DNA of 64,000 nt from a virus. Made by a program: the position numbers and the translations under genes. Numbering within the stretch: position 1 is the first letter of the stretch; every line of letters starts with the position of its first letter. This document shows, in pieces, positions 1,029 to 64,000 of this stretch. Under the pieces are notes generated by a model, which was not told where the DNA came from, ran no database searches, and saw only the letters and a program-made list of their open reading frames with translations. The DNA is taken from IMG/VR virus record IMGVR_UViG_3300018080_000003, positions 32,001 through 96,000 of that record; one strand, given 5' to 3'.

Positions 1029-1106
1029 CATCCCTGAACTCAGGTCAGCTGGTTTCGAACACAGCGCGGTTTGACCCTGGAGTGCCTCGCCGGAGGTGCG
1101 TCCGAA

Positions 1107-3356
1107 GTGTCCCGCACGAAAGCTCTGACCCGACCCATCACTCGCAAGCAAGCGAGGTCGTACAACCGAACCGTCCCAAACGGTCGCGGTGTGACGGCAC
1201 TTGCTGAGGTGAACGGGAAAGGCGCTTACAAGCGGCGCTACCAGGCCACTCGCCGGCTCCTGAAGAACGGCAGCGGGAGTGACCAGATGTACACAGCGGC
1301 CCAAAAGCGCGCGATGAAGAAGATGAGCCCGGCTCAGCGCGCATCTTTCAAGAAGATGCTCAAGCGCGCGCCCTCGATCGCAACGCTTGAAAAGAAGCGG
1401 AAGGCCTCGGCGAAGCGCAAGGCCGCTCCCCAGCGGATGAAGTCGAACGGTCGACGAAAGTCGACGACCACGCGCTCAAAGATGACGCCGAACCGGCGCA
1501 AGACGCGCGCTGGGTCCACGGCTCCTCGGAAGTCGGATTTTATCGAGGCGCAGATTTCTCGTGGCCGCACCAAGAAGCAGGCCGAGTCTTCCTGGAAGCT
1601 CGCGCATGGCCGCCACTACAGCAAGACGGCCGCGAAGGGTGCTGCCAAGCGCAAGCGCCGTCGCGTCTACGGCAAGGGCAAGTACAAGGCTGTGAAGGCC
1701 CGGATTGGTCCCAAGAGCCGTTTCACCTACAAATACACCTCCAAGAGCCGGCGCAGCGGCAAGGAGTCCCTGCGGGACATTCCGGACCATGCGCTCCTCG
1801 GGTTCAAGACCCGCAAGGCCTATCTGGAGGTCGTCCGCGACATCGGCGAGTGGGGCCTCCCCCCCAAGCGCGCTCGGCGGGCGAAGGCGCTGGAGAAGCG
1901 CCTTGATCGTCTCGCAGCTCGAAGAGAGCGTGCTGCCGAGAGAGCCGCGAAGCGCATCAGGGCGGGTCGCGGCATGTTCACACCGAACGATGGGAGCAGC
2001 GCGCTCTCGTACGAGGAGTTCGAAGACATGAAGATGCGTCGAAACATCAGAAAGAAGTCGACCAAGAAGAAGGCGACTCGCAAGAAGACGACCGCGAAGC
2101 GGACTTCGTCGGCGAAGCGTCGTGCCGCGGCCAAGAAGGCTGCCGCGACCCGGAAGCGCAACGCGGCGAAGCGGAGCGCTGCGGCCAAGAAGGCGGCTCG
2201 GACCCGGAAGCGGAAGGCGACTGCCAAGAAGCGCACCACCAAGCGCACCACCAAGCGCACGACCAAGCGTCGCACCACGCGTCGCGTACGTCGGACTCGT
2301 GTCGGGCCGCGCAGCGCAGCGATGCGTCGTCGCAAGGGCAGCGTGAGCGTGAGCTACGCGGCCAACAAGCCGAAGCGTCGGAAGAAGGCCGCCAAGAAGC
2401 GCACGTACAAGAAGACCATCACGGTCGGTCGTCGTGGGCACAAGGTGCGCATTCGGTACCGCGCGAACCGCATGTTCAAGCGCAACGAGGGCTTCGTCAG
2501 CCAGCTGACCAAGAGCCTCAAGCTTGGCGCCGTGGTTCTCGGTGGCTACCTCACGCATCGCGTTTTGACTCGCGTCATCGACGACAACGTGACCAGCAAG
2601 ATCGGAGCGCTCAACGAGGGCACCCTCGGCAAGTACCGCACCCTCATCTCGGGCGCGGCGACTGCGGCCATCGGTATCCCCGCGGCCATCGCTGGTTCGC
2701 GCGCGGCCAAGATGCCCGATATCGCGGCTCCCATCGCAGGCGGCATGGCTGCCAGCCTCATTCAGTCGCTCATCGTGACCGTCCTGGGCGAGACCGCTCC
2801 TGAGTACGCCGGCTACTTCAGCAACTACGCGAACGCGGGTGGCACGGCCACTCCCGGCGGGGTTCTCGGCAGCTACTACACCCTTCCCCAGGCGGGCATG
2901 GGTTCGTACTACGAGTTCCAGCCCCATCAGATCATGCCGGCTGCCGGCATGGGCCAGCTCACCCAGGCTGCTGCGGGCATGGGCCAGCTCACTCAGGCTG
3001 CTGCGGGCATGGGCTCGCCGATGCTCACCCAGGCTGCTGCGGGCATGGGACAAGCGATGCTGACCCAGGCCGCTGCGGGCACCGGTGAGTACGTGGCTTA
3101 CGCCGCGAACGGCATTGGCGAGTACGAGGAGACTTCGGTTTCCGCGTCTCCCATGATGGTGGACGAGGGCATTCACCCGAACCTGCACAGCGCGGAGCAG
3201 GCTCTCACCGTGGCCGAGGCCGCGGCGGGCGTCGGCGCTGCCGACATCCCCCTCCAGTCGACCGTGGAGCCCACCGTCATCGCTGATCCGATCAGCGATG
3301 CGCCCAGTGGCTCGCGTGCCGGCGTCTTCCAAGGCGGCGACGGCATCTTTGCCTGA
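1107..3356 (+). CDS. Basic histone H1/protamine-like core protein with membrane segments and C-terminal AGMG repeats (possible polyprotein)
   Basis: GGAGGT SD 9 nt before GTG 1107. About 470 aa K/R-rich (AAKKAA, KRTT repeats), then about three hydrophobic helices, then LTQAAAGMG repeats. Confidence 0.8.
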   Translation: MSRTKALTRPITRKQARSYNRTVPNGRGVTALAEVNGKGAYKRRYQATRRLLKNGSGSDQMYTAAQKRAMKKMSPAQRASFKKMLKRAPSIATLEKKRKASAKRKAAPQRMKSNGRRKSTTTRSKMTPNRRKTRAGSTAPRKSDFIEAQISRGRTKKQAESSWKLAHGRHYSKTAAKGAAKRKRRRVYGKGKYKAVKARIGPKSRFTYKYTSKSRRSGKESLRDIPDHALLGFKTRKAYLEVVRDIGEWGLPPKRARRAKALEKRLDRLAARRERAAERAAKRIRAGRGMFTPNDGSSALSYEEFEDMKMRRNIRKKSTKKKATRKKTTAKRTSSAKRRAAAKKAAATRKRNAAKRSAAAKKAARTRKRKATAKKRTTKRTTKRTTKRRTTRRVRRTRVGPRSAAMRRRKGSVSVSYAANKPKRRKKAAKKRTYKKTITVGRRGHKVRIRYRANRMFKRNEGFVSQLTKSLKLGAVVLGGYLTHRVLTRVIDDNVTSKIGALNEGTLGKYRTLISGAATAAIGIPAAIAGSRAAKMPDIAAPIAGGMAASLIQSLIVTVLGETAPEYAGYFSNYANAGGTATPGGVLGSYYTLPQAGMGSYYEFQPHQIMPAAGMGQLTQAAAGMGQLTQAAAGMGSPMLTQAAAGMGQAMLTQAAAGTGEYVAYAANGIGEYEETSVSASPMMVDEGIHPNLHSAEQALTVAEAAAGVGAADIPLQSTVEPTVIADPISDAPSGSRAGVFQGGDGIFA
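2945..3080 (+). repeat. Tandem coding repeat LTQAAAG(M/T)G x4
   Basis: ctcacccaggctgctgcgggcatggg unit repeated with variation. Confidence 0.9.
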
Positions 3357-3364
3357 GCCCCACC

Positions 3365-3388
3365 GGGGCAGCCTTTCGGGGCTGCCCC
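3365..3388 (+). other. Stable UUCG-loop hairpin downstream of core gene
   Basis: ggggcagcct-ttcg-gggctgcccc, no U tract. Confidence 0.6.
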
Positions 3389-3512
3389 ATCGTCCAACCC
3401 AACAGATTCCACGGCTGAATTGGTCAGCCGTCGAAACATCAACCACAGAACTGCGGACCGAAGAGGAACCAGGCCTCTATAATCATGGAAGTCCGCTAAG
3501 GTATTGAGAAAA

Positions 3513-4268
3513 ATGGCCAAGTTGACCAACGTCCGTGAGCGTGTACATCAGCCCTTCCGGGACTCGCTCATCCGCACCTCCGGCTACAGCGCCGGCTCGC
3601 TCGACGACCGCACCGACCTGTTCACCCAGGCCGGCAAGTCCGACGGTGAGACCAACCTCAAGCAGGGCAGCGTGCTGCCCAGCGACCAGTCGATGGTCGT
3701 CCTCGCGCTTCGCGCCTTCCTCTGGTTCCGCGCTCCGGTCGCCCGTTCGGCCGCGACGCTCGGCGCCAGCACTGGCGTGAACGGTGACTACTTCATCACC
3801 GCTGGCAACGAGGCCGCCGCCGTGAACCTGCTCAACGGCAGCGTTCCCGGCGACTACCACGACGTGCACCGCCTCTACTGGCAGGCCTCGGAGCAGCTGC
3901 TCTGGAGCTTCGGTGCTGGAGACAAGTTCTCCCTCACCAGCATGCCGTCCAGCTACTTCCCCTGGGGTGGTGGTCTGAGCGGCGACGTGGGCGGCGCGAC
4001 CGACCTCGTGCACTGGAACAACGGCACCCCCGACCAGGCTGGCATCCTCCGCCTGGCCCGTGCCGTGCTCATCCCCCCGCGCCAGAACATCCGTACCGCG
4101 GCCACGATCGTCCGTCTCCCCGACGGCGGCAACGGTTCGGTTCCTTTCGGCGTCAACCAGGGCTCGCGCAACATGCTGAGCCTCCAGGACAACCTGAACG
4201 CGGTCGACCTTGTCAACAAGGTCATCGCCTTCTCGTTCGACGGCCTCTTCAGCCGCGACGTCCAGTGA
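3513..4268 (+). CDS. Putative major capsid protein (single jelly-roll inferred)
   Basis: 251 aa, beta-rich, strongly biased codons, own intergenic region and terminator. QPFRDSL..LF..TNL..G.LP pattern and terminal FSFDG strand. Confidence 0.55.
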   Translation: MAKLTNVRERVHQPFRDSLIRTSGYSAGSLDDRTDLFTQAGKSDGETNLKQGSVLPSDQSMVVLALRAFLWFRAPVARSAATLGASTGVNGDYFITAGNEAAAVNLLNGSVPGDYHDVHRLYWQASEQLLWSFGAGDKFSLTSMPSSYFPWGGGLSGDVGGATDLVHWNNGTPDQAGILRLARAVLIPPRQNIRTAATIVRLPDGGNGSVPFGVNQGSRNMLSLQDNLNAVDLVNKVIAFSFDGLFSRDVQ

Positions 4269-4304
4269 AAACCGGCGGCCTACAGAAGGTCGCCCGGTGA
4301 TTTG

Positions 4305-4345
4305 AGGGCCGGCTCAGCGCGGGGCTGGGTCGGCCCTTTCTTCTT
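4305..4345 (+). terminator. Intrinsic terminator after putative MCP
   Basis: agggccggctcagc..gctgggtcggccct stem followed by ttcttct. Confidence 0.6.
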
Positions 4346-4407
4346 CCCCGATGAAGATGTCATCCCGAGTTCTGACGCGGCTGCGGGATTGAAAGGAGCG
4401 TCACACA

Positions 4408-5550
4408 ATGGATCCTCGAATCAAAGCAATTCAGCAGCAGGCCTACGAGCAGGGGCTCCTTCAGGGGCAGCAGCAGGCTCGACTGAACGACATGGGTCTT
4501 CAGCAGGCTGCGACCGAGCTTCGCAAGGAGTTCGACGCCAAGATGAACCGGATGGCAGGTGGCCTCCGGAAGCAGATGACGGATCACAGCGCCTCGGTGC
4601 ACGAGAAGCTGGGTCAGATCCAAGCTGCAGCTGACAGCATCTCCATCACCGGCGGCGGAGAGGTCGGCTACAACATGCGGGATGAGGGCAACCTGGTTCG
4701 CCCCGGAAACACCCGCATCGAAGACATTCCAGGTCGGCGTGTTCCCTACGTCTACTCGGTGGACATCTTCATCGAAAACAACACCACGAGCGTTCGTGAG
4801 GCGAGCTTGACGATCAGTCAGGAGGGCCCGTTCGTCGCGGTGAAGCGGATGGCTATCTTTCAGAGTGCCTACGAGTTCCAAGCGACGGACCCAGCTTCGG
4901 GTAACTTGGCTCGCTTCGCAGGCCGTTCGTACGGCCGGTACCGTCCGATTCACTCGGCCTGGGACCTTTTGGATGCGCAAAGCAACGCCGTGACGGACAG
5001 CAACGGTTGGTGGGTTCAGCAGAAGGCTGAAGCGGCTTCAGCTGGCGTGGGCAACCCGGTTGCAACGGCTGCGCTGAGCCTTCCGAGCAACAGCAGCAGC
5101 TTCCGCACGATGGAGTTCGATGGTCGCATCGAGGTCATCAACGCGGGCAGCAGCTACCCGCGCCAGAACAAGGAGATCCCTTCGGCGTTCTGGAGCAGCT
5201 CGATCAACTCTCCTTGGGACCTCGGTGCCCTGGACTTCTTCGAGCGTGGCGAGGTTGTCACCTTCAAGGTGAATCCGACGCACGTGAACAATCCGCCCGC
5301 GGGGAACATCCAGAGCGACTGCGTTCTTCCGAATACCTTCAACGGTGGCGATGGCTGGCCCTTCTTGGAAGGCCAGTACGACCTTCACGAAGGCATCTGC
5401 ACCCCTGAGGGCGCGACCATCGGCGAGTTGGCCGCTCCTCAGCGTGTGAACGTGGTCGCAACGGACCCCATCCAGCGCCTTCCGGATGGTATCCTCACGT
5501 TGGCCTTCGAGGGCTATCGGATCATCCAGCCCATCGGTCCGGCCGCCTGA
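4408..5550 (+). CDS. Putative capsid/penton-like protein with N-terminal coiled coil
   Basis: AAAGGAG SD. Helical Q-rich N-terminus then a beta-rich domain ending LAFEGY. Confidence 0.5.
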   Translation: MDPRIKAIQQQAYEQGLLQGQQQARLNDMGLQQAATELRKEFDAKMNRMAGGLRKQMTDHSASVHEKLGQIQAAADSISITGGGEVGYNMRDEGNLVRPGNTRIEDIPGRRVPYVYSVDIFIENNTTSVREASLTISQEGPFVAVKRMAIFQSAYEFQATDPASGNLARFAGRSYGRYRPIHSAWDLLDAQSNAVTDSNGWWVQQKAEAASAGVGNPVATAALSLPSNSSSFRTMEFDGRIEVINAGSSYPRQNKEIPSAFWSSSINSPWDLGALDFFERGEVVTFKVNPTHVNNPPAGNIQSDCVLPNTFNGGDGWPFLEGQYDLHEGICTPEGATIGELAAPQRVNVVATDPIQRLPDGILTLAFEGYRIIQPIGPAA

Positions 5551-5560
5551 GGAGTGAAGT

Positions 5561-6460
5561 ATGGCGCATCGACGCAGAAAAAAGTCGCCCAATCTCGGTA
5601 CTGTGCCGGGTCAGGTGGTTCCGATCTCAAACGGGGGTCATCAGCTCGTTTCCAAGGGCGCAGCTCAGACCCTTCTGCGTGGTGAGATTGCGCGTGCGCT
5701 GCAGGACAAGGACGACTACCTCAGCACTTTCGAGGGACAGCAGGCTGGTGTTCCAGGAATGGGCTCGGCGCCTGAGGTTCGGCATGAGCCGGCTGGCGGC
5801 GTCTTCACCAAGTTCCTTCACCCGGCTTTCACCATCATGGAGTTCCTCCGGCGCTCGTTGCCGGAGGAGGGCTGGTTCGACCCGGGCGTGAACCCCCGCA
5901 ACCCGATCCAGTTCCAGCTTGGAAGCTTTCAGGTTCCAAGCGGTCTGGCCCTCTGGCTCTACGACTACGAGTACAAAGTTTTCCGTCCTTCTGGGGTAGA
6001 CCCGGGAGACTTCATCCCGGCTGAGGTCGGTCGCTACAGCAATCAGATCGGTTTCGATGTGACGCTGAGCGGTAAGAGAGACGCGCAGCTCAGCATTCAG
6101 CTCGACCCTCAGACGACGAGTCTTTCTCGTCAGGAGTTCGAGCAGCAGGGCAACACGGGTGGTGCAAGCATCTTCGGCAATCCTCCGACGGCATCTAGCG
6201 CGTTTGATCGCGCCACGGCGAACTCTTTCGCTTCGACGGCCGGGCCGGGAACGTCGCTTTTGCCCAACCGTCCGAACAAGTTTGGTCCTCGGGGCGGCCC
6301 GTGGACTCTGGTGGCAGACGAGGGCACGCGTGTCGCGCTCAACGTCGTCATCTTCAACCGTATTCGTTCTCCCTTGGCGGCCGTAGAGGGTCGCTTGGGC
6401 GGGTACTTGATTCAGCGGCAGGTGAGCAGTTCGCTCATCAACCGTGTCCGTCCGCGATGA
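5561..6460 (+). CDS. Putative minor capsid protein (beta-rich)
   Basis: GAGGAG SD. LGSFQVPSG strand pattern, VPGMG motif, terminal RLGGY strand. Confidence 0.5.
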   Translation: MAHRRRKKSPNLGTVPGQVVPISNGGHQLVSKGAAQTLLRGEIARALQDKDDYLSTFEGQQAGVPGMGSAPEVRHEPAGGVFTKFLHPAFTIMEFLRRSLPEEGWFDPGVNPRNPIQFQLGSFQVPSGLALWLYDYEYKVFRPSGVDPGDFIPAEVGRYSNQIGFDVTLSGKRDAQLSIQLDPQTTSLSRQEFEQQGNTGGASIFGNPPTASSAFDRATANSFASTAGPGTSLLPNRPNKFGPRGGPWTLVADEGTRVALNVVIFNRIRSPLAAVEGRLGGYLIQRQVSSSLINRVRPR

Positions 6461-6466
6461 TCAGGA

Positions 6467-6573
6467 GGCGAGAGGCAGAGCAGACAGTCGGAGTAGAAAC
6501 AGTGGGGACGCAACCGCGAATGTGTTGTGCCCTCCAGCCGCTGGGGCTTCGGCTGTCTGCTCTGCTTCTCGCC
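6467..6573 (+). ncRNA. 107-nt rod-shaped RNA hairpin
   Basis: 27-bp closing stem whose three mismatches are all G-U on the + strand. Inner helices also pair. Confidence 0.6.
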
Positions 6574-6584
6574 ATCGTTTGACC

Positions 6585-11707: not shown

Positions 11708-12286
11708 ATGGAGATCGATTTTCGACAGATGCTCTTTGGGGTGGGCAGCACCGCTGTTCAGAGCCTCCGTTCGGGCAATCCGACCACCGACAGCTACGCA
11801 CAGGCGGCGGCTCGTCTTCTCCAGCATGCCGGCAAGTGGTCTGCGGTCAGCCAGTCGGGGGTACGTTGTACGACGCGTCAGCGCACACCGATCGGAACGA
11901 CTGAGATCTGTCGAGCCCCTGGGATTGGAGCCTGTGTCGTCTGTGACCAGCCGACTTGTTTCAACCACTCGATGATCTCTCCCCATGATGGAACGCAGAT
12001 CTGTTTTGGGTGCGTGGGGCGTTCTCAGCAGCAGTACCGTGCGGGTGGTCCGGCAGAAGCTCCTGGGGTCAGCGACGCTGAGAAGAAGGCGGATTGCCTC
12101 ATCGTACTTGGCCTCGCGGGAGAGGTGACTTGGGCTCAGGTCCAGGCGGTCTACAAGGCTATCGCCAAAGAGCAGCACCCCGACAAGTTCCCTCCCGCTC
12201 AACGGAAGGAGCAGGAGAAGAAATTCAAGAAGATCAACCAGGCCTATGAGTGGCTCAAGGCCCACTACGAGAAAGAAGCAGCATGA
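11708..12286 (+). CDS. Zn-finger plus C-terminal J-domain protein
   Basis: CxxC-x4-CxxH..CxxC, then VLGL..YKAIAKEQHPDK..FKKINQAYEWL with intact HPD. Confidence 0.9.
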   Translation: MEIDFRQMLFGVGSTAVQSLRSGNPTTDSYAQAAARLLQHAGKWSAVSQSGVRCTTRQRTPIGTTEICRAPGIGACVVCDQPTCFNHSMISPHDGTQICFGCVGRSQQQYRAGGPAEAPGVSDAEKKADCLIVLGLAGEVTWAQVQAVYKAIAKEQHPDKFPPAQRKEQEKKFKKINQAYEWLKAHYEKEAA

Positions 12287-24874: not shown

Positions 24875-27769
24875 ATGGATTTCGGTTCTGCTGGTATCAA
24901 GGGAAACGGGAAGGCACGTGCCTTTGAGTTCCCGGATGGCGTGGACGCTGAGGTGGCGCTCGCGGGTCGCGCTCGTCTTCGCTACAACGCTTTCACGAAC
25001 CAGCTTGAACTGAGCGTCAGTGGTAACCCTTACTTGCCTTTCACGGCAGGTGGCGGAGCGATTCCACTCAATGGAATATCCTGGGTAGACGGACGTAACG
25101 GGAACGATGGAACTGCCATTTATGGCAGTCAAAACAACCCCTTCCAGACGGTTCAAGCCGCCATCAACTCGGCGATTGGGTCTGGGTTCACGACTATCGG
25201 CATCGTCGTTCTTGGCGGAGATTACCCAGAGGACGTCGTCGTGCCGAACGTCCTCGTCGACACGCGCCTGGGGATCGTGGGCCTTGGCGGGGCGGGCGTC
25301 AACATCCGTTCGCTGACGGCCTCTTGTCCGACAGGTGCAGGTGTTCGACTTGATCTCTCGATCGAGTCGCTCACGTTGGGCACCCGAGTTGGTGGGGGCC
25401 AGACGGTAGCTCCTTTGACCCTTGTGGGGGACAACGGGAACTTGGAGGTGGAGACCCGTGGCGTGAACATGAACAGTTCGACGCCGAACATTCCTCCCTT
25501 CCAGACGTTGAACGCCGCTGCGACTGGCAACCTCGACGCCGTGATGGGAGAGTCGATTTTGCGCGCGACGGCATCTCCGGCGGCGGCCGTAGAGATGGCG
25601 TTTGGCGATGTCGAGTTTCGCGACATAACGCTTCGAGGCCTGGATACGACTCAGGTTCTGATCACGGGCCCGTGCAATTTCACGGGTTCAGACGTGGTGC
25701 TCCTCGCAGATGGTGCAGGCGGCAACCCTCTGATCGCTCACTCTGGGCCTTCTGGTCAAATCAACTTCGTCTCAAGTTTCTGTCAGCCCTCTTCGACGAC
25801 CGATGATTTTATCCAGGTCTCTTCTCCTGCGACGAGCGTTGTACTTCGCTCCTGCATCGTTGGAAGCAACGGTTACACCGGTCAGGTTCTTCTATCCGGC
25901 GGACCGGTCTTCTACAACTTTGTCAGCTCTGTAGACGGAAATCCTGTTCCGATTGTGGGTGCTGGCTTTGAGACTCGTTTTCAGAACAGTAGCCAGGTCC
26001 AGCACAACAGCACGACGGTCATCGGAACGCAGCCTGTCGATCAGGCCATGGACGACTTGCTCTTCGGGACGACGCAGATTGGAGCGCCCATCGTTGGCCC
26101 TGGCACCTTCGCCCTTGGAGATGATTCGACGATTCTCGTCGATACGGGTGCGGCTGTAACGCTGACGCTTCCGGCCATCACGACGCGGCCTCGCGGCAAG
26201 GCTTATCGGATCGTGGACGCGACGGGCGGCGGCACGCCTGTCACGATCAATCCGACGGGTGCAGATACCGTGAATGGCGGCGCGTCTCTTACGTTCACCC
26301 CTGGTGGCGCGAACGCCTCCATCGTCCTTCAGTCGGAGTCCGCTTCCACCAACTGGGCTCTGACCCAGGCGGATCCAACGACTGGCGGCGGTGGTGGTTC
26401 GACGATTCCTGTTGACCGCATCACCTACGTGAATCAGCTGAACGGCAACGACGCAACCGGTGTGGCGGGTGACATTGCTTTCCCCTTTCAGACTGTTCAG
26501 GCAGCGGTCAACGCGGCCATCGCGACTTTGGGCTTCAGTGCGGGCAACCTGGGCATCGTCGTTTCTCCTGGGTCCTATCTGGAAGATGTCGATATCGACT
26601 ACACGCTCAGTAGCGGGATGTATCTCGGCATTTACGGCGATGGTCACGCGGTGAAAATCCGGAGCATCAACGTCATCGGACCCAATATCCCGGTCGGTTC
26701 TCCTTTCTTCCAGGAGCTTTTCATCGGTGATCTCTGCATCGGCTTTCCCGAGGGCGCTGGCTTCTCTAGCCGCCCCGCACTTCAGGTCCGCGAGGGCCTT
26801 GCCCCTCTGAACGTTGTGCTCTCGAACGTGGGATGCTTCGTAGCAAACGGCAACGAAGACGTCGTCGTCATTGGCCCAGCCTCGACGGGAGGTGTCACAG
26901 TTGAGGCTGTTGGCGGCGGAGCTTTCGCGAATGACAACATCAACGCTGTGACGGGCCGCGCGCTGGTGATGGACACGGGTACCTTCCGGGGTACTGGCTT
27001 CAATCTTCAGTCTCGGAACGCCCCTGCGGTTGAGATCACTGGCGCCGCCATCTACAACGACCAGGGTTCTCGTATCGCTCAGGTGTTGGGCGTGGGAACG
27101 GACCCTCTAATCCGAACGACTGCGACGACGCTTCACCTCATCAGCCTGAACAACACGCAGCTCGTTCCGACCACGACAACGGTCGACGTCATCGAGACGA
27201 ACGACATCAACGCGGACATCACGTTGAACGATGTTCAGGTTCAGCTCATCGGTTCGTCTGGCAACATCAACATGACCTCGGGTGGCATCGTCAACGTTAC
27301 GAGCGCCTACGTCTCGCAGACGGGTCCTTGTCCCATTATCGGCGCCACGGTCGTGAACCTCGACCACCAGGGTTCACAGGTCGGCTACTCGTCCTCGACG
27401 GTCCTTGGTGACCGCGACATGACAGATGCTGTGACGCAGGTCGTACAGGGTGTCAGTGACACGGTGGCTCGGCTCACAGGTGGCGGCGCGTTCGCTGCTG
27501 GACCGGAGGAAGTCATTTTGGTGGCTGAGGGCGCCTCTCCGACGACCATCACGTTGCCTCTTCGGAGTACAGTAGTCGATGGTAAAAAGTACCGTGTGGT
27601 GGATGCGCTCCCTGCAGGTTCTGCGGGCATCACGATCGCTGCTTCTGGCGCCGATACTATCAACGGTGGCGCGACGTTTGTGATGACGACGGGCCCGAAT
27701 AACTACGTCGAGGTCATCGCTGAGGTGGGCGCTCCCTCGGCTTGGACGATCATCGGTATTCGTCCTTGA
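24875..27769 (+). CDS. Spike/fibre protein 1 (adaptor plus two beta-helix-like modules)
   Basis: Shared N-terminal RAxEFP..GRARxRYN adaptor. GND..PFQTVQAA x2 and GADT(V/I)NGG domain x2. Confidence 0.75.
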   Translation: MDFGSAGIKGNGKARAFEFPDGVDAEVALAGRARLRYNAFTNQLELSVSGNPYLPFTAGGGAIPLNGISWVDGRNGNDGTAIYGSQNNPFQTVQAAINSAIGSGFTTIGIVVLGGDYPEDVVVPNVLVDTRLGIVGLGGAGVNIRSLTASCPTGAGVRLDLSIESLTLGTRVGGGQTVAPLTLVGDNGNLEVETRGVNMNSSTPNIPPFQTLNAAATGNLDAVMGESILRATASPAAAVEMAFGDVEFRDITLRGLDTTQVLITGPCNFTGSDVVLLADGAGGNPLIAHSGPSGQINFVSSFCQPSSTTDDFIQVSSPATSVVLRSCIVGSNGYTGQVLLSGGPVFYNFVSSVDGNPVPIVGAGFETRFQNSSQVQHNSTTVIGTQPVDQAMDDLLFGTTQIGAPIVGPGTFALGDDSTILVDTGAAVTLTLPAITTRPRGKAYRIVDATGGGTPVTINPTGADTVNGGASLTFTPGGANASIVLQSESASTNWALTQADPTTGGGGGSTIPVDRITYVNQLNGNDATGVAGDIAFPFQTVQAAVNAAIATLGFSAGNLGIVVSPGSYLEDVDIDYTLSSGMYLGIYGDGHAVKIRSINVIGPNIPVGSPFFQELFIGDLCIGFPEGAGFSSRPALQVREGLAPLNVVLSNVGCFVANGNEDVVVIGPASTGGVTVEAVGGGAFANDNINAVTGRALVMDTGTFRGTGFNLQSRNAPAVEITGAAIYNDQGSRIAQVLGVGTDPLIRTTATTLHLISLNNTQLVPTTTTVDVIETNDINADITLNDVQVQLIGSSGNINMTSGGIVNVTSAYVSQTGPCPIIGATVVNLDHQGSQVGYSSSTVLGDRDMTDAVTQVVQGVSDTVARLTGGGAFAAGPEEVILVAEGASPTTITLPLRSTVVDGKKYRVVDALPAGSAGITIAASGADTINGGATFVMTTGPNNYVEVIAEVGAPSAWTIIGIRP

Positions 27770-27780
27770 GGAGGTGAGAG

Positions 27781-29301
27781 ATGGGTAGAGGAACAGTCGG
27801 TTTCAAGGGCCACGGGATCACGCGATCTCTGGAGTTCCCCAACGGGGAACTGGCCCCTGTTGCGCCTCCAGGTCGTGCTCGTCTTCGCTACAACGATGCG
27901 ACAAGTCAGCTTGAGCTGAGCATCTCCGGCGGCGCCTTTGCGCCTGTAGGCACGGGCGGCGCCACTGCGGCGCTGAGTTACGCGGCCTGGGTGGATGAGC
28001 GCTCAGGCAACGATGGCACGGCGGTGGTAGGCAACATCAACCTGCCATTCCTCACGGTCCAGGCTGCGGTGAACGCGGTCATTGCCCTGGGCAACCCAGA
28101 CGCATCGATTCTCATCTTGCCTGGCAATTACCAGGAGGATGTTGTGGTTCCGGCTGCCTTTGCTGACATCCAGATAGGCTTCTCTGGAGTGAGTGGTGCG
28201 AGCAATATTCGCTCGATCACGCTGAACGCTCCGGCGGCTCCTGCGGTCCGGGCTCAGTTCACGCTCAACGAGCTGACGCTGGGCAACCGTGTGGGTGGTG
28301 GGCAGACGGTTGCGCCTCTGGTGATCGTCAACGGTGACGGGGACACGGACGTCTTCGCAACGCAGCTGCAGCTCTTCACTTCGACGCCTAACATCGACTT
28401 GGTTCGAACTGAGAACAACACGGCTTTCGGTTTATTGACGGTCCAATTCAACGGCGGCCAGGCTCTAGCGACACCTGGGTCGGCGAACTCGCGAGCCTTG
28501 TTCTTGGAGGCGGGTACGATTCTGACGAACGATTTTCTCACCTTCTCGCAGACGGCTTCTGCGATTGAGATCGACGGCTTCGTTGCTCTGTTCGACGTGG
28601 GCTCGGTCTATCAGCAGAGCCTGGGCTCGGTGTCGCCTCTCATCACTTGCTCGCTGACGTCCTTCGCGTTCGTCAACCTTTTTGGAACGTCGCTCCAGCT
28701 TCCGACGGCTAACACCGTCATCGACCTGCCTTCTCCAGGCGCGAGCGTGAACCTCAACGGAGGCGTTGTTCAGTCGTTCGTGCATGCCGGCGCGGGTATC
28801 GCGACGCCCGGCACCGCGGCGGTGAACTACATCTCCGACTTGGCGGGCAACCGCCTCTCGGTGTCTGCGCTTTCTGGTTTGGGCCTCCTTCAAGGCGCCG
28901 AGCTGGTGGCCTTCGACTCGACGACGAACGTACTCCCTGCAGGCCTAACGGCCACCGAGGGCATCGATCGTGCCATCCAAGGGGTGAGCGACACGGTGGC
29001 ACGCATCACGGGCGGCGGCGCTGTGGCGGCAGGGTCTGAAGAGATCATCTTGGTGGACGAGCCTGCCCTAGCCACCACCATTCTTCTTCCGCTCCGAAGT
29101 ACGGTCGACGAGGGGAAGAAGTATCGTGTCGTCGATGCGACGCCGGCTGGTGCCGCTGGCATCACAGTGGCAGCTTCGGGCGCTGACACAATCAACGGAG
29201 GCCCTTCGACGGTGGTCACCTCTGGTCAGAACAACTACGTGGAAGTCATGGCGGAAGCTGGCGCGGCCACAAGCTGGGTGATTGTCGGCATTCGGCCCTG
29301 A
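27781..29301 (+). CDS. Spike/fibre protein 2
   Basis: Same adaptor and C-terminal domain as 24875. Confidence 0.75.
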   Translation: MGRGTVGFKGHGITRSLEFPNGELAPVAPPGRARLRYNDATSQLELSISGGAFAPVGTGGATAALSYAAWVDERSGNDGTAVVGNINLPFLTVQAAVNAVIALGNPDASILILPGNYQEDVVVPAAFADIQIGFSGVSGASNIRSITLNAPAAPAVRAQFTLNELTLGNRVGGGQTVAPLVIVNGDGDTDVFATQLQLFTSTPNIDLVRTENNTAFGLLTVQFNGGQALATPGSANSRALFLEAGTILTNDFLTFSQTASAIEIDGFVALFDVGSVYQQSLGSVSPLITCSLTSFAFVNLFGTSLQLPTANTVIDLPSPGASVNLNGGVVQSFVHAGAGIATPGTAAVNYISDLAGNRLSVSALSGLGLLQGAELVAFDSTTNVLPAGLTATEGIDRAIQGVSDTVARITGGGAVAAGSEEIILVDEPALATTILLPLRSTVDEGKKYRVVDATPAGAAGITVAASGADTINGGPSTVVTSGQNNYVEVMAEAGAATSWVIVGIRP

Positions 29302-29309
29302 GGTGATTC

Positions 29310-30797
29310 ATGAGTGATGGCTCTATCGGTTTCAAGGACGTCGGGCGCTGGCGTGCGCTTGAGTTCCCTGACGGACAGAATGCAGAAGTCTCTCCTCTTG
29401 GGCGTGCTCGTGTTCGCTACAACGACGGCAGCGGGGAGCTTGAGGCCAGTCTGGATGGCGGGCCGTACCAGCGTATCGGAGGCCTCACGCAGAACGGTGC
29501 GGGCTGGGTTGACGCTTTTGGCGGGAACGATACGACAGCGGAGTATGGCCGTCTCGATCTCCCCTTTCGAACGGTGCAAGCAGCAGTCGATGCGGCTTAC
29601 GCGACAGGGGGAGACAATCTAACTCTTGTCATTTTTGCAGGGGACTACCCGGAGGATGTCGTCATCCAGCCCCCCCCCGCTCAGCCGACGACCTTGACGT
29701 TGTTTGGTCTCTACCGTAGCGGTGTGAGGGTCCGTTCCGTCACGTTGGACAACCCAAGTGGCGCCCAGACAGCTGACGTCGTGATGTCTTCCCTGTCTCT
29801 TGGCAGCGATGCGGGTGGCCAAACGGTTCCACCCATCACGCTCCAAGCTCCGAACAACGGGACCCTTCGAGCACGCCTCGACAACGTCATCGCGACGAGT
29901 TCCACGCCTGGCATTGACGTTTTTCAGCAGACCAACAACTTTGGCGTTGTTACCTGTGAGGCCAACAACAGCACCCTGACTGCGACGGATGCTGCAACAG
30001 GTTCACGCGCTGCCTTCATCAACTCAGGGGCCCTCGTCGCCAACAACTGCACTCTGAGAGGCTTCTCCGCCAACACCGTATTGGTCGAAGCCGCTGGCAC
30101 TTTCACTATGTCAGGAGGGTTCCTCGACCAGGGTGGCCTCTTTGGTGGTTTCACTACTCTTCAGAGCAATGGCACCGGAGCCGTGGTGCTCACCAACATT
30201 CGCGCGAGCCCAGCTGGGTTTTTCGACGACGTTATTGCCGCTAGCAACTCGCTCGCTAACTTCACTGTTCTGGGACTGCTGGTTATCGACGGTTTTTACT
30301 TCGGGAATGCTTTCATGAGCGGGAATGTGTTCGCGTATTCCTTCCTCGCGAATACGGCTGGCACTCCGATTCCGATCATCACTGCGCTACAGGTACGACT
30401 TCAGCGGGCCGAGCAGGTAGGCGCCTCGGTTGGCACTCTGGGGAACACGACTGTCAACGCTGCGCTTGACAACATCCTCGTCGGTGTCACCAACATCAAC
30501 AATCGCATCAACGGTCCTGCCGTTTTCGCACCTACGACACAGCGAACTTTGCCTTGCAATACGACGGGAGGGGTCGTCACCTTTAACCTTCCGACGATTA
30601 ACGCTTTCCCTCGTGGCAAAACTTTCCGGTTCGTTCATGCTGTGCCTGGAGCGAGCGACATCGTCATCAACTCCTCTGGTGCTGATACGATCGACGGAGG
30701 CGCATCCTTCAACCTACCGGCTGGAGCGAACAACTATGTTGAGATCCAAAGCTAGGTGGGGATCAACAACTGGGTGGTGGTTTCTCGCCGTCCTTGA
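29310..30797 (+). CDS. Spike/fibre protein 3, with in-frame TAG at 30753 (13 codons before the homologous end)
   Basis: NNYVEIQS*VGINNWVVVSRRP aligns with paralogue ends NNYVEVIAEVGAPSAWTIIGIRP. Confidence 0.7.
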
Positions 30798-45522: not shown

Positions 45523-45694
45523 GGTTCTCTGGACGTTCGTAGATGTTGACGATCCAAACGTTTCTCTTCTTCTCTTGTGTCGGTTCACAGCAACAAGCGT
45601 TTTGGGTCAGTTTCGATGCGATGAGCCAAGAGATCGAGACGCTGATTGCGATGAGGAAGAGGCCTTCCAAGGTTCTTTTGTCGTGTCTGCTCAT
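45515..45694 (-). CDS. Small membrane protein
   Basis: 59 aa with one TM, coupled both sides. Confidence 0.5.
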   Translation of the reverse strand: MSRHDKRTLEGLFLIAISVSISWLIASKLTQNACCCEPTQEKKRNVWIVNIYERPENHE

Positions 45695-46809
45695 GTTCTA
45701 ATCTCAGGGCTCCACTCCTCAGGGTTGAGTCCGTAGGTCCAGGCGTTCGCTTGACGCGCTGTCGTCATCTCGGGCGGGACCGGCAGCACGAACGTGCGCC
45801 CGGTCCCGCACCGCACCTGCAGGAACTGCTCACCGGGCGCGTCAGGCAGATCCACGCGCAGCAGCTTGCCCACCTCCGGGCTGTCCTCGTCGACCACGAC
45901 GGGCGACAACTGGTCAAGGACCTTGTCCCAGCCGACGATCTCAGCCAAGCACCGCCGCTGCTCGATGTTCTCCCAGGTCAGCGCCAGCTTGGGGTCGACG
46001 TCGGCTGTCTGCTCGATCCAATCCGCTGGCACCCGTGTGCCGTGCCACGCGTGCACGGCGAACCCGTCGCGGCACAGGATGGCCGGGCCATCTTCGCAAT
46101 GTAGGCGTCGCTCAGCGTCGAAGCGGACGCGTTCGTGTCGCTCCGCGCAAAAGCACACGCCCTCGTATGGGAACCACCACCCCGACGCTGCCGCTAGGCG
46201 CTCCCATTGCCGTAGTAGCTCATCATCCTTCGAGGCGTATTCCGCCCCCGCGACGTCACGGCAAGCCGCATAGTGGCCTATCCAGAATCCCGGCTGCGCG
46301 AGGTGCCAGCCGTTGTCCAGCTCCCTGCGGGCCTGGCCCCCGAGCTGGCCCCCGAGCTGGCCCCAGAGCTGGTCCCAGAGCTGGCCCCAGAGCTGGCCCC
46401 CGAGCTGGCCCCAGAGCTGGCCCCCGAGCTGGCCCCAGAGCTGGTCCCAGAGCTGGCCCCAGAGCTGGCCCCCGAGCTGGCCCCGGAGCGGGCCCCGGAG
46501 CTGGCCCCCGAGCTGGCCCCAGAGCTGGCCCCCGAGCTGGCCCCCGAGCTGGCCCCCGAGCTGGCCCCGGAGCTTGCCCCTCTTTGAGAGGCTCGCCACG
46601 AGCGTGGCTTCTAGGCAACTAGCCAGCGGCCCGCTTCCCCAAACGAACGCCGGCCGATCTTTGCCAATGCGCCGGTAGAAGCCTGTGATCACCTCCTCGG
46701 TGGTCTCCCGGTCTGCCGGGTCTGTGCACGAGCCGATAGCTACCCAGCGCTCACGCTCGCGCGCCACAGCGGCCCACTGATCTGCGCTCAGCGCTTCAAT
46801 CCTCGACAC
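45691..46809 (-). CDS. DUF6745-like protein with GQL(W/G/R) tetrapeptide repeats
   Basis: [46 protein letters not shown]. Confidence 0.8.
46333..46573. repeat. 12-bp tandem repeat, about 20 copies
   Basis: (gagctggccccN)n encoding [12 protein letters not shown]. Confidence 0.95.
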
Positions 46810-47131
46810 GTCGCCAGCCCTCCGGGGTGTACTCGCGCTGGCGCCGCAACTCGAAGGTGCCGGCGGGGATGAGAAGCGACTCGTGCGTGTCGACGGGGCG
46901 GTGGTGCTCAAGCACGATGGGCGACTCGCACCGCAGGTAGCAGACCATGGGGTCCGCGGGCTCTCGCCATAGCTCGGCGTCCGATGGGATCGTGTGGTGG
47001 TGGCCCGTCTCACTGTGGGCCACTACGTGGTGGTCGCCGGTGGCATGGATGCGCTCTGCGGCCTCTGGGATGGTGTTGATGCGACGGATCAAGAGATCGC
47101 CCTGTGCAGCTTGGTTGTTGAACTTCATCAT
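46796..47131 (-). CDS. His-rich partner of DUF6745-like gene
   Basis: QGDLL..SETGHHH..H..G.FELRRQREY. Confidence 0.8.
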   Translation of the reverse strand: MMKFNNQAAQGDLLIRRINTIPEAAERIHATGDHHVVAHSETGHHHTIPSDAELWREPADPMVCYLRCESPIVLEHHRPVDTHESLLIPAGTFELRRQREYTPEGWRRVED

Positions 47132-49584: not shown

Positions 49585-49997
49585 TGGTTTTGGATCTCCT
49601 CGCGGAGCTTCAGCAGTTGCGCTTGGGCTACTTCAAGCCTTTCTCGCAGAACTTCGTTGTACTGTTTGGTCTTCTCGATGGCGTACTTCAGCGCTTGGGT
49701 GCGCGTGTAGAAGAGCCTGGACACCTCAGGCTTGTTGAGGCGCCTTTGAATCCACTTCGTGGTCGTACGCCCTGTAGGGCAGTTGTTCTCTGACACCATC
49801 CAGTCGTCGATCAGGTCGGCTCCAGCGCGGCCGGTGTCGTGGGGCGCGTACTCAGCCCACGTGCAGTGCTCGTAGTAGGTGTAGGTATTCTCGAAGACGT
49901 GGTACTTGTCGGAGTAGAAGGAGACGTGAAACAGCGTGAAGCTGTCTCGGTCTTGTGGGTCTTCGAGGATCTTTTTGATCTCTTCTTCTGAGGTCAT
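49581..49997 (-). CDS. Hypothetical protein
   Basis: Coupled ORF. Confidence 0.65.
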   Translation of the reverse strand: MTSEEEIKKILEDPQDRDSFTLFHVSFYSDKYHVFENTYTYYEHCTWAEYAPHDTGRAGADLIDDWMVSENNCPTGRTTTKWIQRRLNKPEVSRLFYTRTQALKYAIEKTKQYNEVLRERLEVAQAQLLKLREEIQNQ

Positions 49998-51190
49998 GCC
50001 GTCCACCCGAACAGGTCGCTGTCATCGTCGAGCGTGCCGTGGTCGGGCTCAGCGTCCTGGCCCACGGGGCCAGAGGGCGGAGCGCTCACGGGCGGAAGCT
50101 CGTCGACCGAGGGCGGCGGAGGCGGAGCCTCCGAAGCGGGCGGCGGGGAGGCGTCCGAAGTGCGCGTCTCCGCGGCGGGCTCCGGCTCCTCCTCGTCGAG
50201 GAAGTCGACCACCTGACCCTGGAGCAGCGAGCGGAAGTGCCGCTGGTAAAGCTCCTGGGTCTCCTGAAGGGGCGTCATGACGCTCGCCTCGATGACCTCC
50301 TTGTAGAGGGAGAGCTTGTTGCCGAGCTGCTGCATGTTCTCCAGCTGGCGCTTGATGTAGCCCTCGCGGCTCTTGGGCTTGCCCTTGGCGGTGAGCGAGG
50401 GGCTCTTGGCCTCTTCGATCTCACGCTGCAGGCGCTCCTTCATCTCGGCCAGCTCCTCGGTGAGCTTGCGCTTGCCGGCGTCCTGCATGACGGCCACGTC
50501 GTGGGCGGCGCCCATCGTGGTCTTCGGGTCGCGCAGGTAGTAGATGCCGAGCCGGACCCGGCACTCGTCCATGAAGGCGTGGAGCGCAGGGGCGTTGTGG
50601 TGGATGATGTAGTAGTTGTTGCCACCACCGAGGCTCTTGCTGCCTCCGGCCTGCTCGACGGCAGCGCGGAGCGCTTTGCCCAGCTGGCTCGCATCCATGT
50701 TCTCCAGCAGGGAGTTGGCCTGTTGGGCGATGTCTTCGGCACGCTTGCGCGCCTCCTCATCGGGGAAGGTGCTCTGCCCCTCGGGCGGGAATGCGCGGGC
50801 CTGGACGATGGTGTTGCCGTCCTCGTCGAGGCCCAGGTTGCCGATGCGCACGCGGGCGAGGCAGGTGTACTCGTCGCCCGATTCGTCATCGCCGGTGACC
50901 TCGGTCACGTGGATGGCCATGGGCGTGTCTGGGTTGGGGTGCACGAATTCGCGCACCAGGTAGCCCTTGGGGTTGCGCCCTCGCCGCGACGCGGCCTTCA
51001 GGGCGCTGTCGGGCTTGGGCGGTCGCTCGACGAGCGAAGCGAAGCCGTGCTCCTGGAACACCTTGAGGGCGTCGCGGCGCGGGACGTAGACGCCCGTCAC
51101 GGCGAACTCGATGCGGTCGCCGAGCCAGGTCGCGCCGTGCTTCTCGCAGCGCTTGCGGGTCTCTTTGATGGTCTCTGATTCGATGGTCAT
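49994..51190 (-). CDS. Hypothetical protein, DUF6744-like (tentative)
   Basis: 398 aa, strong codon bias, coiled coil and acidic Pro tail. Confidence 0.7.
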   Translation of the reverse strand: MTIESETIKETRKRCEKHGATWLGDRIEFAVTGVYVPRRDALKVFQEHGFASLVERPPKPDSALKAASRRGRNPKGYLVREFVHPNPDTPMAIHVTEVTGDDESGDEYTCLARVRIGNLGLDEDGNTIVQARAFPPEGQSTFPDEEARKRAEDIAQQANSLLENMDASQLGKALRAAVEQAGGSKSLGGGNNYYIIHHNAPALHAFMDECRVRLGIYYLRDPKTTMGAAHDVAVMQDAGKRKLTEELAEMKERLQREIEEAKSPSLTAKGKPKSREGYIKRQLENMQQLGNKLSLYKEVIEASVMTPLQETQELYQRHFRSLLQGQVVDFLDEEEPEPAAETRTSDASPPPASEAPPPPPSVDELPPVSAPPSGPVGQDAEPDHGTLDDDSDLFGWTA

Positions 51191-61867: not shown

Positions 61868-63070
61868 ATGACTGCCAAGCTCAAGGCTGTGGAAGAACAG
61901 CCCAAGACCAACCCACTGCACGACAAGGTCGTGTCCATCCGCCGCGCCCTTGAGGGCGCCATGCTGGAGCGCGAGGACGCGATCGAAGCGCTCATGCTCG
62001 CGTTCGTGACGCAGGAGCACGTCGTCTTCGAGGGGCCGCCCGGCACGGGCAAGAGCTACTTCGTCGATGCGCTCTTCTCGTGCATGGAGGCCGACAACCG
62101 CTACGTGCGGCGGCTCATCCACAAGTTCATGACCCCGACCGAGTTAATCGGCGGGATGGACCTGAAGCACTTCCAGGAGCACGGCCGGGTGCGCACGGTC
62201 ATCGAGCGCGGCCCGGCTACGGCGGAGGCGGTGTTCCTGGATGAGATCTTCAAAGCGAACGGCGCGTGCCTCAACTCCCTACTCAGCCTGCTCAACGAGC
62301 GGCTGTTCATGGACCAGGAGCGAGGGACCATCGAGGTGCCCCTGCGCATGTGCGCGGCGGCCTCCAACGAATTCCCCGAGGACAAGAGCCTCGCGGCGCT
62401 GTACGACCGGTTCCTGTTCCGCTGCCAGGTGAGCTTCCTGCGGCCCGAAAACCGCAAGCGGCTGCTCATGCGCAAGGCTGGCCAGGACAAGCGGGCGCAG
62501 GCCTTCGAGCCGCCCGTTCAGCTCACTACCGACGAGTGGGATCAGATCGCCGCCGAGGCCGACGAGGTCACCATCCCCGAGGCCGTCATCGACGCCATCC
62601 AGAGCTTGGAGCACAAGCTCTTTCACGAGCACGGCCTTACCAGCTCCGACCGGCGCTTCGTTCAAGCCCTGCGCGCCATCAAGGCCGCTGCCTGGCTCGA
62701 TGGGGACGACGAGGCCGACGTCAGCCACATCGAGGCCCTTCGCTTCGTGCTCTGGGACACCCCCGAGCAGCGGGAGAAGGTCGAGGACGCCATCGCAGCC
62801 ATGGACCAGGGTGAGACCAAGGCGCTCATCGACGCCATGGACAACGCCCTGCGCGCCTTCCACAGCCGCCCCACCGAGAACGCGGCCCTCTACGAGGCCA
62901 TCCCGCAGATCCTCGCAGGCATCAAGGCTGCCGCCGAGCAGGCCCGCGAAGCGGTCACCTCCGGCCGGCTCTCGCGCAAAAACGTCGACAAGATCAAGCG
63001 CCGCGGCGCTGAGGTCGCCGAAGCGCACAAGGAACTCATCAAGCTCATGCAGTCTGGGGTGGAGTTCTGA
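61868..63070 (+). CDS. MoxR/RavA-like AAA+ ATPase
   Basis: GPPGTGKS Walker A, VFLDEIFKA, LLSLLNER, AASNE, ALYDRF. Confidence 0.95.
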   Translation: MTAKLKAVEEQPKTNPLHDKVVSIRRALEGAMLEREDAIEALMLAFVTQEHVVFEGPPGTGKSYFVDALFSCMEADNRYVRRLIHKFMTPTELIGGMDLKHFQEHGRVRTVIERGPATAEAVFLDEIFKANGACLNSLLSLLNERLFMDQERGTIEVPLRMCAAASNEFPEDKSLAALYDRFLFRCQVSFLRPENRKRLLMRKAGQDKRAQAFEPPVQLTTDEWDQIAAEADEVTIPEAVIDAIQSLEHKLFHEHGLTSSDRRFVQALRAIKAAAWLDGDDEADVSHIEALRFVLWDTPEQREKVEDAIAAMDQGETKALIDAMDNALRAFHSRPTENAALYEAIPQILAGIKAAAEQAREAVTSGRLSRKNVDKIKRRGAEVAEAHKELIKLMQSGVEF

Positions 63071-63074
63071 GGTC

Positions 63075-63449
63075 ATGACCTACACCCACCAAGTCCCCAG
63101 CTACAAGCATGGACCCACGGCCAAGGCGCTCATCGCGCAAGGCTGGGCCCTGCACGTCGTGGAGACCTACAGCAGCAAGAACTACACGGACCTTCTCATC
63201 CGGATCATCCCCGCCGCTGAGACCCTCGCCGGTCTCGCCGCCGATGAGGGCATCCGCATGCTCAAGCTCGATCGCTACGACATCAATGTCCGCGTCCGCA
63301 TGGACGAGTCCGCGCCTCCCAGCATCGACGATGCCGTCGAGTATGCCTCCAGGTGCTTCGCCAAGAGCATCCACAACACCCTCGGCCGCTACGTCGAGCG
63401 CCTTCAGTCCGTCCTCAGCCGTGTCCCCGTCCCTCAGGAGAAGTCATGA
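63075..63449 (+). CDS. Hypothetical protein
   Basis: Between ATPase and vWA genes. Confidence 0.65.
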   Translation: MTYTHQVPSYKHGPTAKALIAQGWALHVVETYSSKNYTDLLIRIIPAAETLAGLAADEGIRMLKLDRYDINVRVRMDESAPPSIDDAVEYASRCFAKSIHNTLGRYVERLQSVLSRVPVPQEKS

Positions 63450-64000
63450 GCATCGAAACATCCTCTGCCTGGAAGGCTGCCACTGGCGCCTTCAGTCCAG
63501 ATCCCGGCTCTTGGGCCGAAGCGTTCATGGACACGATGCCTCAGCAGTACGCTTCCCTGCTCGCGAGAGGTGGCCCGGCCCTGGACTGCGCCGTCAAGCG
63601 GCACAACGAAGCGAAGACCAACATGTTCTCCCAAGGTCACCGAAGCCCCTTCCACATGCGAGAGACCTGCCGCGAAGCTTGGAGACGCTTCCAGGAAGAA
63701 GCAGAGCGGCGTGAGTCTCTCGAATTCGGCCTCGGCTTCGACCAGTCCGACAGCTGGGACCACAGTTTCCGTGCCGAGCTGCCCCAGAAACTGCGACCCG
63801 CCAAGGTCTACGACATCGCCCGGCTCGCCGGCCGGCTGGTCGTCGCGCTGCGTGGAGAGAAGGCAAAGAAGGTCTCTTCTGTACCCGAGGAGGTCTACGA
63901 CGTCGAGCTGGGCGGTGACCCCTCCCGTCTGCTCACCAGCGAACTGATGCACCTCGGGCAACCCACCGAGCTGATGCTCCTCAACCGCATCAACGAGCAG
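63446..64000 (+). CDS. ViaA/vWA-domain partner protein (5' part, runs off window)
   Basis: Open frame to the end. EEVYDVELGGDPSRLLTSEL matches the ViaA-like pre-vWA motif, next to a RavA-like ATPase. Confidence 0.75.
   Translation, partial: MSIETSSAWKAATGAFSPDPGSWAEAFMDTMPQQYASLLARGGPALDCAVKRHNEAKTNMFSQGHRSPFHMRETCREAWRRFQEEAERRESLEFGLGFDQSDSWDHSFRAELPQKLRPAKVYDIARLAGRLVVALRGEKAKKVSSVPEEVYDVELGGDPSRLLTSELMHLGQPTELMLLNRINEQ

Follow-up and report, generated by a model that had tools for sequence, protein, structure and literature searches.

The window analysed here is a 64,000-nucleotide stretch (bases 32001-96000) of the complete, 143,727-bp IMG/VR virus record IMGVR_UViG_3300018080_000003, which carries a 123-bp direct terminal repeat. 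It contains three consecutive genes, referred to as g1, g2 and g3, which lie directly downstream of a gene for a large basic protein (the core protein) and which we regard as candidate genes for the shell proteins of a large virus. A preliminary description, made from the sequence alone, had proposed three capsid-like genes at this position. Indeed, all three could be confirmed as open reading frames (ORFs) of the plus strand, and the strings quoted for them are present near the ends of g1 (IAFSFDGLF), g2 (TLAFEGYRI) and g3 (EGRLGGYLI) and within g3 (LGSFQVPSG). The genes and the domains predicted in their products are as follows.

3513-4268, plus strand: g1, 251 aa, ORF opening at 3504; candidate major shell protein, predicted single jelly-roll-like beta sandwich
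4408-5550, plus strand: g2, 380 aa; second candidate shell protein
4414-4641, plus strand: N-terminal helix of g2 (residues 3-78), predicted in the AlphaFold model
4729-5547, plus strand: predicted jelly-roll-like beta domain of g2 (residues 108-380)
5561-6460, plus strand: g3, 299 aa; variable basic N-terminus, GQxAGxPGxG motif and a probably beta-rich domain at residues ~80-299
1071-3356, plus strand: core-protein gene, 761 aa, basic and Lys/Arg-rich product; immediately 5' of g1

Since the homologues of g1 are nearly all 250-251 aa long, we take the ATG at 3513 as its true start. The g2 gene is preceded by a good Shine-Dalgarno sequence, and its end is separated from the start of g3 by 10 nt. 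The GQxAGxPGxG motif of g3 (residues 59-68, window positions 5735-5764) is conserved across the g3 family.

Conservation and expression signals of the gene module

In 21 IMG/VR contigs, which measure 38-182 kb, the genes likewise follow each other as core protein, g1, g2, g3; most of these contigs carry a DnaJ gene a few kb 3' of the trio, and a core-protein homologue lies immediately 5' of g1 in most related loci. Over the 21 contigs, identity to the window amounts to 53-70% for g1, 34-57% for g2 and 27-51% for g3, so that conservation ranks g1 > g2 > g3. At the level of clusters, 685 homologues were found for g1, 625 for g2 and 43 for g3, and all of the 120 homologues listed for g1 are at least 65% identical. 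The layout of a 161-kb NCBI contig matches that of the window, and its replication arm is divergent as well. When 1.84 billion representatives were searched with a profile, 140 clusters were obtained, and the contigs of one distant member (P0381) encode, in this order, a 378-aa protein, a g1-like protein of 238 aa, proteins of 270 and 269 aa, and DnaJ. With hhalign, the g1-like and g2-like proteins of this distant lineage scored 96% and 95.8%, respectively, and the third protein was aligned over its full length but weakly (9%). From the gene order in the relatives and in the distant lineage we therefore conclude that the trio is an old, fixed module. The J-domain (DnaJ) protein also belongs to the conserved structural module (window 11708-12286; L029:3800-4462), and in the distant lineage it follows directly after the trio. 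In one relative, g1 has a second, tandem g1-like copy (L009:8650-9840, L009:10001-10774), which is apparently interrupted or frameshifted.

The homologues of the trio are almost all nameless, the only two labels reading 'MAG: hypothetical protein' (MAG, metagenome-assembled genome), and scans of g1-g3 against Pfam and PHROGs assigned them to no family. We obtained no tblastn match to g1 among 50,697 GenBank phage records and no pattern match when viral contigs were scanned with the distant g1-like protein. The sequencing runs that hold the stretch are sediment, seawater and microbial-mat metagenomes. The sole match in 185,579 GTDB species genomes is a 4264-bp contig (JAJRCO010000025.1), which carries the whole trio and is binned in a Methanomicrobiales MAG; because it is so short, it is probably mis-binned and no evidence of the host. 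A description of the lineage was not found in the literature searched, which was a limited collection.

The signals that surround the three genes are the following.

3365-3388, plus strand: 10-bp GC-rich hairpin just past the stop of the core-protein gene and before g1, -22.4 kcal/mol
3478-3483, plus strand: TATAAT hexamer, a possible -10 box 30 nt 5' of the g1 ATG
4304-4338 (annotated as 4304-4348), plus strand: terminator-like 15-bp GC-rich hairpin with a T-rich tail, 3' of g1
6465-6575, plus strand: very long hairpin (~110 nt) directly 3' of g3, -79 kcal/mol, z -8.6

Both the TATAAT at about 3478 and the terminator after g1 that had been proposed are thus present. A scan with the sigma-70 consensus revealed no complete -35/-10 promoter near 3478-3483, and the hairpin at 3365-3388 reaches a z-score of only -1.8 compared to shuffled sequence. 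For the hairpin 3' of g1, we compared the best 45-nt hairpin of each locus with random 150-nt windows from the same loci in 19 cases, i.e. the window and 18 relatives. The best hairpin averages -30.3 kcal/mol, compared to -20.2 ± 3.8 in the controls, and lies below the 5th percentile of the controls in 16 of the 19 cases; it is kept among the relatives in structure, not in sequence. The identical test, applied after g3 as an internal negative control, placed none of the 19 cases below this percentile. The distance between g2 and g3 is at most 15 nt in most loci. From these results we conclude that g1 forms its own hairpin-terminated unit and that g2 and g3 are tightly coupled. The long hairpin at 6465-6575 has no counterpart after g3 in 19 related loci.

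The G+C content at third codon positions (GC3) is 0.89 in g1, which is among the highest values of the genome, 0.76 in g2 and 0.70 in g3, with a genome average of ~0.74. A separate g1 unit fits a protein that would be required in large excess. The suggestion that g1 encodes the most abundant protein therefore looks sound, judging from the hairpin-bounded unit, the codon bias and the highest conservation within the trio.

Predicted folds and the question of common origin

The best of five AlphaFold models of g1 (predicted local distance difference test, pLDDT, 65.6; predicted template modelling score, pTM, 0.67) shows long strands at residues 12-22, 33-36, 61-73, 129-135, 138-145, 193-199 and 235-247, with helices between the strands 61-73 and 129-135. 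The model of g2 begins with an N-terminal helix of ~78 residues, which is followed by a beta domain. The structural neighbours of the g1 model and of the g2 beta domain are only jelly-roll proteins, viral capsid proteins included, and the weak Foldseek matches are dominated by capsid jelly rolls. Neighbours shared by the two models comprise Sulfolobus polyhedral virus 1 (SPV1), PRD1 P3, PHM, BMV, GOLD and nucleoplasmin-like domains. For both g1 and g2, a jelly-roll fold is predicted with moderate confidence. For g3, a crude profile-based propensity method, whose three-state accuracy (Q3) was only ~0.62 when checked on g1 and g2, suggests seven to eight strands at residues 115-286 with a long variable loop; its ESM Atlas model is poor (pLDDT 0.46) and has only its own kin as neighbours. 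A profile search against the sequences of the PDB returned only chance matches (antibodies, apolipoproteins, HopBF1), and a wide PDB profile search with g2 was swamped by the N-terminal helix and is uninformative on the beta domain. The three proteins had been called beta-rich in the preliminary description, a term that has to be restricted in view of the helix with which g2 opens.

The preliminary description had also proposed that the three genes are paralogues with a shared terminal strand, having arisen by duplication of one single jelly-roll gene to give a major capsid, a minor capsid and a penton protein. The genes are adjacent and co-oriented, g1 and g2 both model as jelly-roll-like and have structural neighbours in common, and the tandem copy in the relative L009 represents a duplication of g1. 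Moreover, in the models of g1 and g2 the final beta strand (235-247 and 361-373, respectively) contains the quoted string, and one Gly in each of the three strings is invariant in its family (g1 G244, g2 G369, g3 G281). When aligned on this Gly, however, the strings have only 1-3 identities in 7 positions. Of the 194 proteins of the genome, 16 (8%) contain the loose motif [DEG]-G-[YLF] within their final 30 residues, so that the likeness is not clearly above chance. At most, the terminal strands share a loose motif. Two further signals connect g1 with g2: the string PRQN, which no further protein of the genome contains, is invariant in the g1 and the g2 family alike, and a collinear H.GI...RLPDG stretch aligns the two proteins (P = 0.049). 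Since proteins of these lengths should have about one 4-mer in common at random, we regard these signals as a hint only. Profile comparison does not support common descent: hhalign gives 1.3%, 0.2% and 0.6% for the three pairs of families and stays at or below 1.3% with small and with 143-sequence alignments alike, and the g2-like and g3-like proteins of the distant lineage are not similar to one another (BLASTP E 0.64). Altogether, we consider an origin of all three genes by duplication, with major capsid, minor capsid and penton roles, unlikely, although less so than the other alternatives discussed below.

Hallmark genes and comparison with known viruses

In keeping with the designation of the trio as capsid-like, it is placed in a structural module of a genome in which HK97 capsid, portal and terminase genes are not detectable. 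All ORFs of at least 300 aa were scanned against Pfam, and PHROGs was used in addition for most of the ORFs that Pfam left unmatched; neither scan revealed a terminase, a portal, an HK97 capsid or an FtsK-type ATPase. Six-frame searches with Terminase_6N, TerL_ATPase, Phage_portal, Phage_capsid and FtsK_SpoIIIE (models PF05065, PF03237, PF03354 and PF04860, plus PF01580 for FtsK) were likewise empty, and the control genomes were matched. The set of HK97-fold capsid, terminase and portal of Duplodnaviria was hence found by none of the Pfam, PHROGs and six-frame searches. A scan for Walker A motifs returned only helicases, one MoxR ATPase and chance sites.

Upstream of the trio and on the opposite strand lies a replication module with a DnaG-type primase fused to a P-loop domain, two helicases and a PD-(D/E)XK nuclease. 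On the 3' side, g3 is followed by some nine proteins that have transmembrane helices at the C-terminus, two of them also with peptidoglycan-binding domains, and beyond these by the DnaJ protein, glycosyltransferases, methyltransferases, three large spike-like proteins, an SLT transglycosylase and an M15 peptidase. With Pfam, PG_binding_1, SLT and M15 peptidase genes were identified in the genome, and the host probably has peptidoglycan. The core protein contains hydrophobic segments or helices as well as GMG and GSYY repeats, and it is a candidate for a membrane-anchored protein that condenses DNA.

A resemblance to the single jelly-roll proteins of Thermus phage P23-77 had been suggested from the string LGSFQVPSG. 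This could not be substantiated, since the string has no six-frame match in the P23-77 genome at up to 3 mismatches, and comparison of g1, g2 and g3 with VP16, VP17, VP11, VP15 and VP20 gave at most 0.7% in hhalign and BLASTP E-values of at least 0.097, i.e. no link at the level of profiles. The Halopanivirales (P23-77 VP16/VP17, HHIV-2 VP4/VP7) build their shell from two vertical single jelly-roll major capsid proteins, and both would have in common that two beta-barrel shell proteins, one smaller and one larger, are encoded side by side in an internal-membrane virus. In contrast to P23-77, the trio has no profile similarity to VP16, VP17, VP11 or to the P23-77 ATPase; unlike in Halopanivirales, a basic 761-aa core protein and no packaging ATPase is encoded upstream of it, and the genome is about eight times larger than the Halopanivirales type. 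An FtsK/HerA-type packaging ATPase next to the capsid genes was not found, PF01580 having no six-frame match in the genome. Judged by these sequence comparisons, membership of the trio in the Halopanivirales module fails on profile similarity and on the adjacent ATPase. Major capsid proteins of the double jelly-roll type (Bamfordvirae) have two jelly rolls per chain and are accompanied by an A32/FtsK-like ATPase, whereas each of g1 and g2 seems, according to its model, to contain a single barrel; in alignments with such proteins, the g2 beta domain covers only one of their barrels, and the six-frame search revealed no FtsK/A32-type ATPase. From bacterial jelly-roll fibre proteins of the TasA/camelysin type, g1 differs in that it has no signal peptide, lies in a viral structural operon and shows no sequence similarity to TasA.

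The nearest analogue in design, not a demonstrated relative, appears to be SPV1 of the Portogloboviridae, with the capsid proteins VP4 and VP10 and the core protein VP1. Its shell consists of separate single jelly-roll hexamer and pentamer proteins, underlain by an inner lipid layer with subcapsomer membrane proteins and a DNA-condensing nucleoprotein core; it encodes a glycosyltransferase and a methyltransferase, and a polymerase or other replication protein has not been identified in it (PMC8459092). There is no sequence similarity between SPV1 and the trio. SPV1 has a 20-kb circular genome, a hyperthermophilic archaeal host and two capsid proteins, in contrast to the virus described here, whose 144-kb genome is linear with terminal repeats and encodes enzymes directed at peptidoglycan as well as three conserved proteins.

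Proposed virion, alternatives and further genes

We consider it somewhat probable that the trio encodes the shell proteins of a large virus that probably contains a membrane and probably has no tail, with g1 as the major, g2 as the second and g3 as the third component and with DNA condensed by the core protein. The presence of the three proteins in the virion, their individual roles, the icosahedral assembly and the mode of packaging are what we infer from the observations above. According to this proposal, g1 would be the abundant major shell protein with a single jelly-roll-like fold, transcribed as its own unit, and the hairpin behind it would terminate or stabilise the mRNA, so that g1 would be produced in surplus relative to g2 and g3. 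The second jelly-roll protein, g2, might use its long helix to reach inward to the membrane or the core, or to cement capsomers. A third, less conserved beta-rich component coupled to g2 would be provided by g3, a candidate for the vertex (penton) protein. The genome would be condensed by the basic core protein encoded upstream, similar to SPV1, and neither a terminase nor an FtsK-type ATPase would pump it in. For the virion, a membrane and the absence of a tail are probable.

Several observations weigh against this proposal. The five models of g1 span a pLDDT of 43 to 66, i.e. they are of moderate confidence, and the pTM of the g2 model is 0.47. Neither the g1 nor the g2 model has a Foldseek match at E ≤ 0.001 in the PDB or BFVD, and the second-best structural match of g1 is TasA, which is not a capsid protein. 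The sequencing runs listed for the stretch include no RNA run. Finally, a very divergent HK97 capsid or terminase could have escaped the searches with hidden Markov models, and three consecutive large proteins (964, 506 and 481 aa) encoded at 24875-30755 share a stretch of ~57 residues which matches PHROG 4577, 'tail protein'. It may represent a module by which spikes or fibres are anchored in a common way.

The trio could also be structural without forming an icosahedral shell, and instead build a matrix, a nucleocapsid coat or a membrane-associated layer of a pleomorphic or enveloped virion. The virus encodes very many tail-anchored membrane proteins together with a basic, putatively membrane-anchored core protein, a packaging ATPase is not detectable, and the structural matches are too weak for placement in a capsid family, all of which would agree with such a virion. 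However, icosahedral capsid jelly rolls provide the best match and make up most of the neighbours, and very high conservation, when seen in a small beta-sandwich protein, is typical of coat proteins that form a lattice, so that we regard a non-icosahedral layer as rather improbable. Accessory roles of the trio as decoration or cement proteins, TNF/C1q-like trimeric receptor-binding heads or fibre knobs, with divergent true capsid genes elsewhere, are very unlikely: although a long helix with a C-terminal beta sandwich as in g2 is a layout common in trimeric fibres and the 'tail protein' stretch occurs in large proteins nearby, receptor-binding proteins are usually among the most variable whereas g1 is the most conserved protein of the module, the trio has a fixed position directly after the core-protein gene, and the ORFs and frames searched hold no candidates for an HK97 capsid, portal or terminase.

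Returning to the trio as shell proteins of a membrane-containing virus, the contigs that carry it would represent a previously undescribed lineage of large dsDNA viruses, the complete or long contigs of which measure 110-182 kb. Prokaryotic dsDNA viruses above ~50 kb that have been characterised are, to our knowledge, all tailed phages with the HK97 fold, and the known jelly-roll viruses of bacteria and archaea are small. The present lineage would be a widespread clade of 110-182-kb genomes, with hundreds of protein clusters and occurrences in samples from sediment, seawater and microbial mats; its only capsid candidates would be jelly-roll-like proteins without known relatives, and the clade would lack a recognisable packaging motor. 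More tentatively, and with doubt prevailing, the clade could be a new high-rank lineage of aquatic and sediment viruses, probably of bacteria, in which an icosahedral membrane capsid is built from two or three single jelly-roll proteins without sequence kin and a histone-like core condenses the DNA in place of a terminase or FtsK motor, i.e. a bacterial jumbo counterpart of the portoglobovirus design. If the shell-protein reading is true, non-tailed prokaryotic viruses would span a wider range of sizes and of ways of assembly and packaging than described, and g1 would be a marker gene for finding such viruses, whose contigs appear to be labelled as tailed phages by default in pipelines of the IMG/VR type.

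The GQxAGxPGxG motif of g3 resembles GMG-type motifs of the core protein and of the N-termini of the membrane proteins, and going by the motifs a common processing or docking signal is conceivable. A protease was not found among the ORFs scanned, most ORFs below 300 aa lying outside that scan.

The other unexplained ORF with a very high GC3, located at 49994-51190 on the minus strand, is DUF6744-like and was on this ground ruled out as a capsid protein. Besides it, the virus encodes a DUF6745 protein (45691-47013, minus strand), a bpMoxR AAA+ ATPase (61868-63070, plus strand) and a VWA protein (63353-64000 onwards). These families are typical of bacterial conflict systems, and several of the four genes have the highest GC3 of the genome (0.90-0.91). 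Genes of the virus that lie beyond the window (L005:9189-11176, L005:13285-14460 and L006:788-4456) specify a response regulator with a histidine kinase, a protein resembling IS605 OrfB/TnpB and a protein of 1222 aa that contains a tyrosine recombinase domain.

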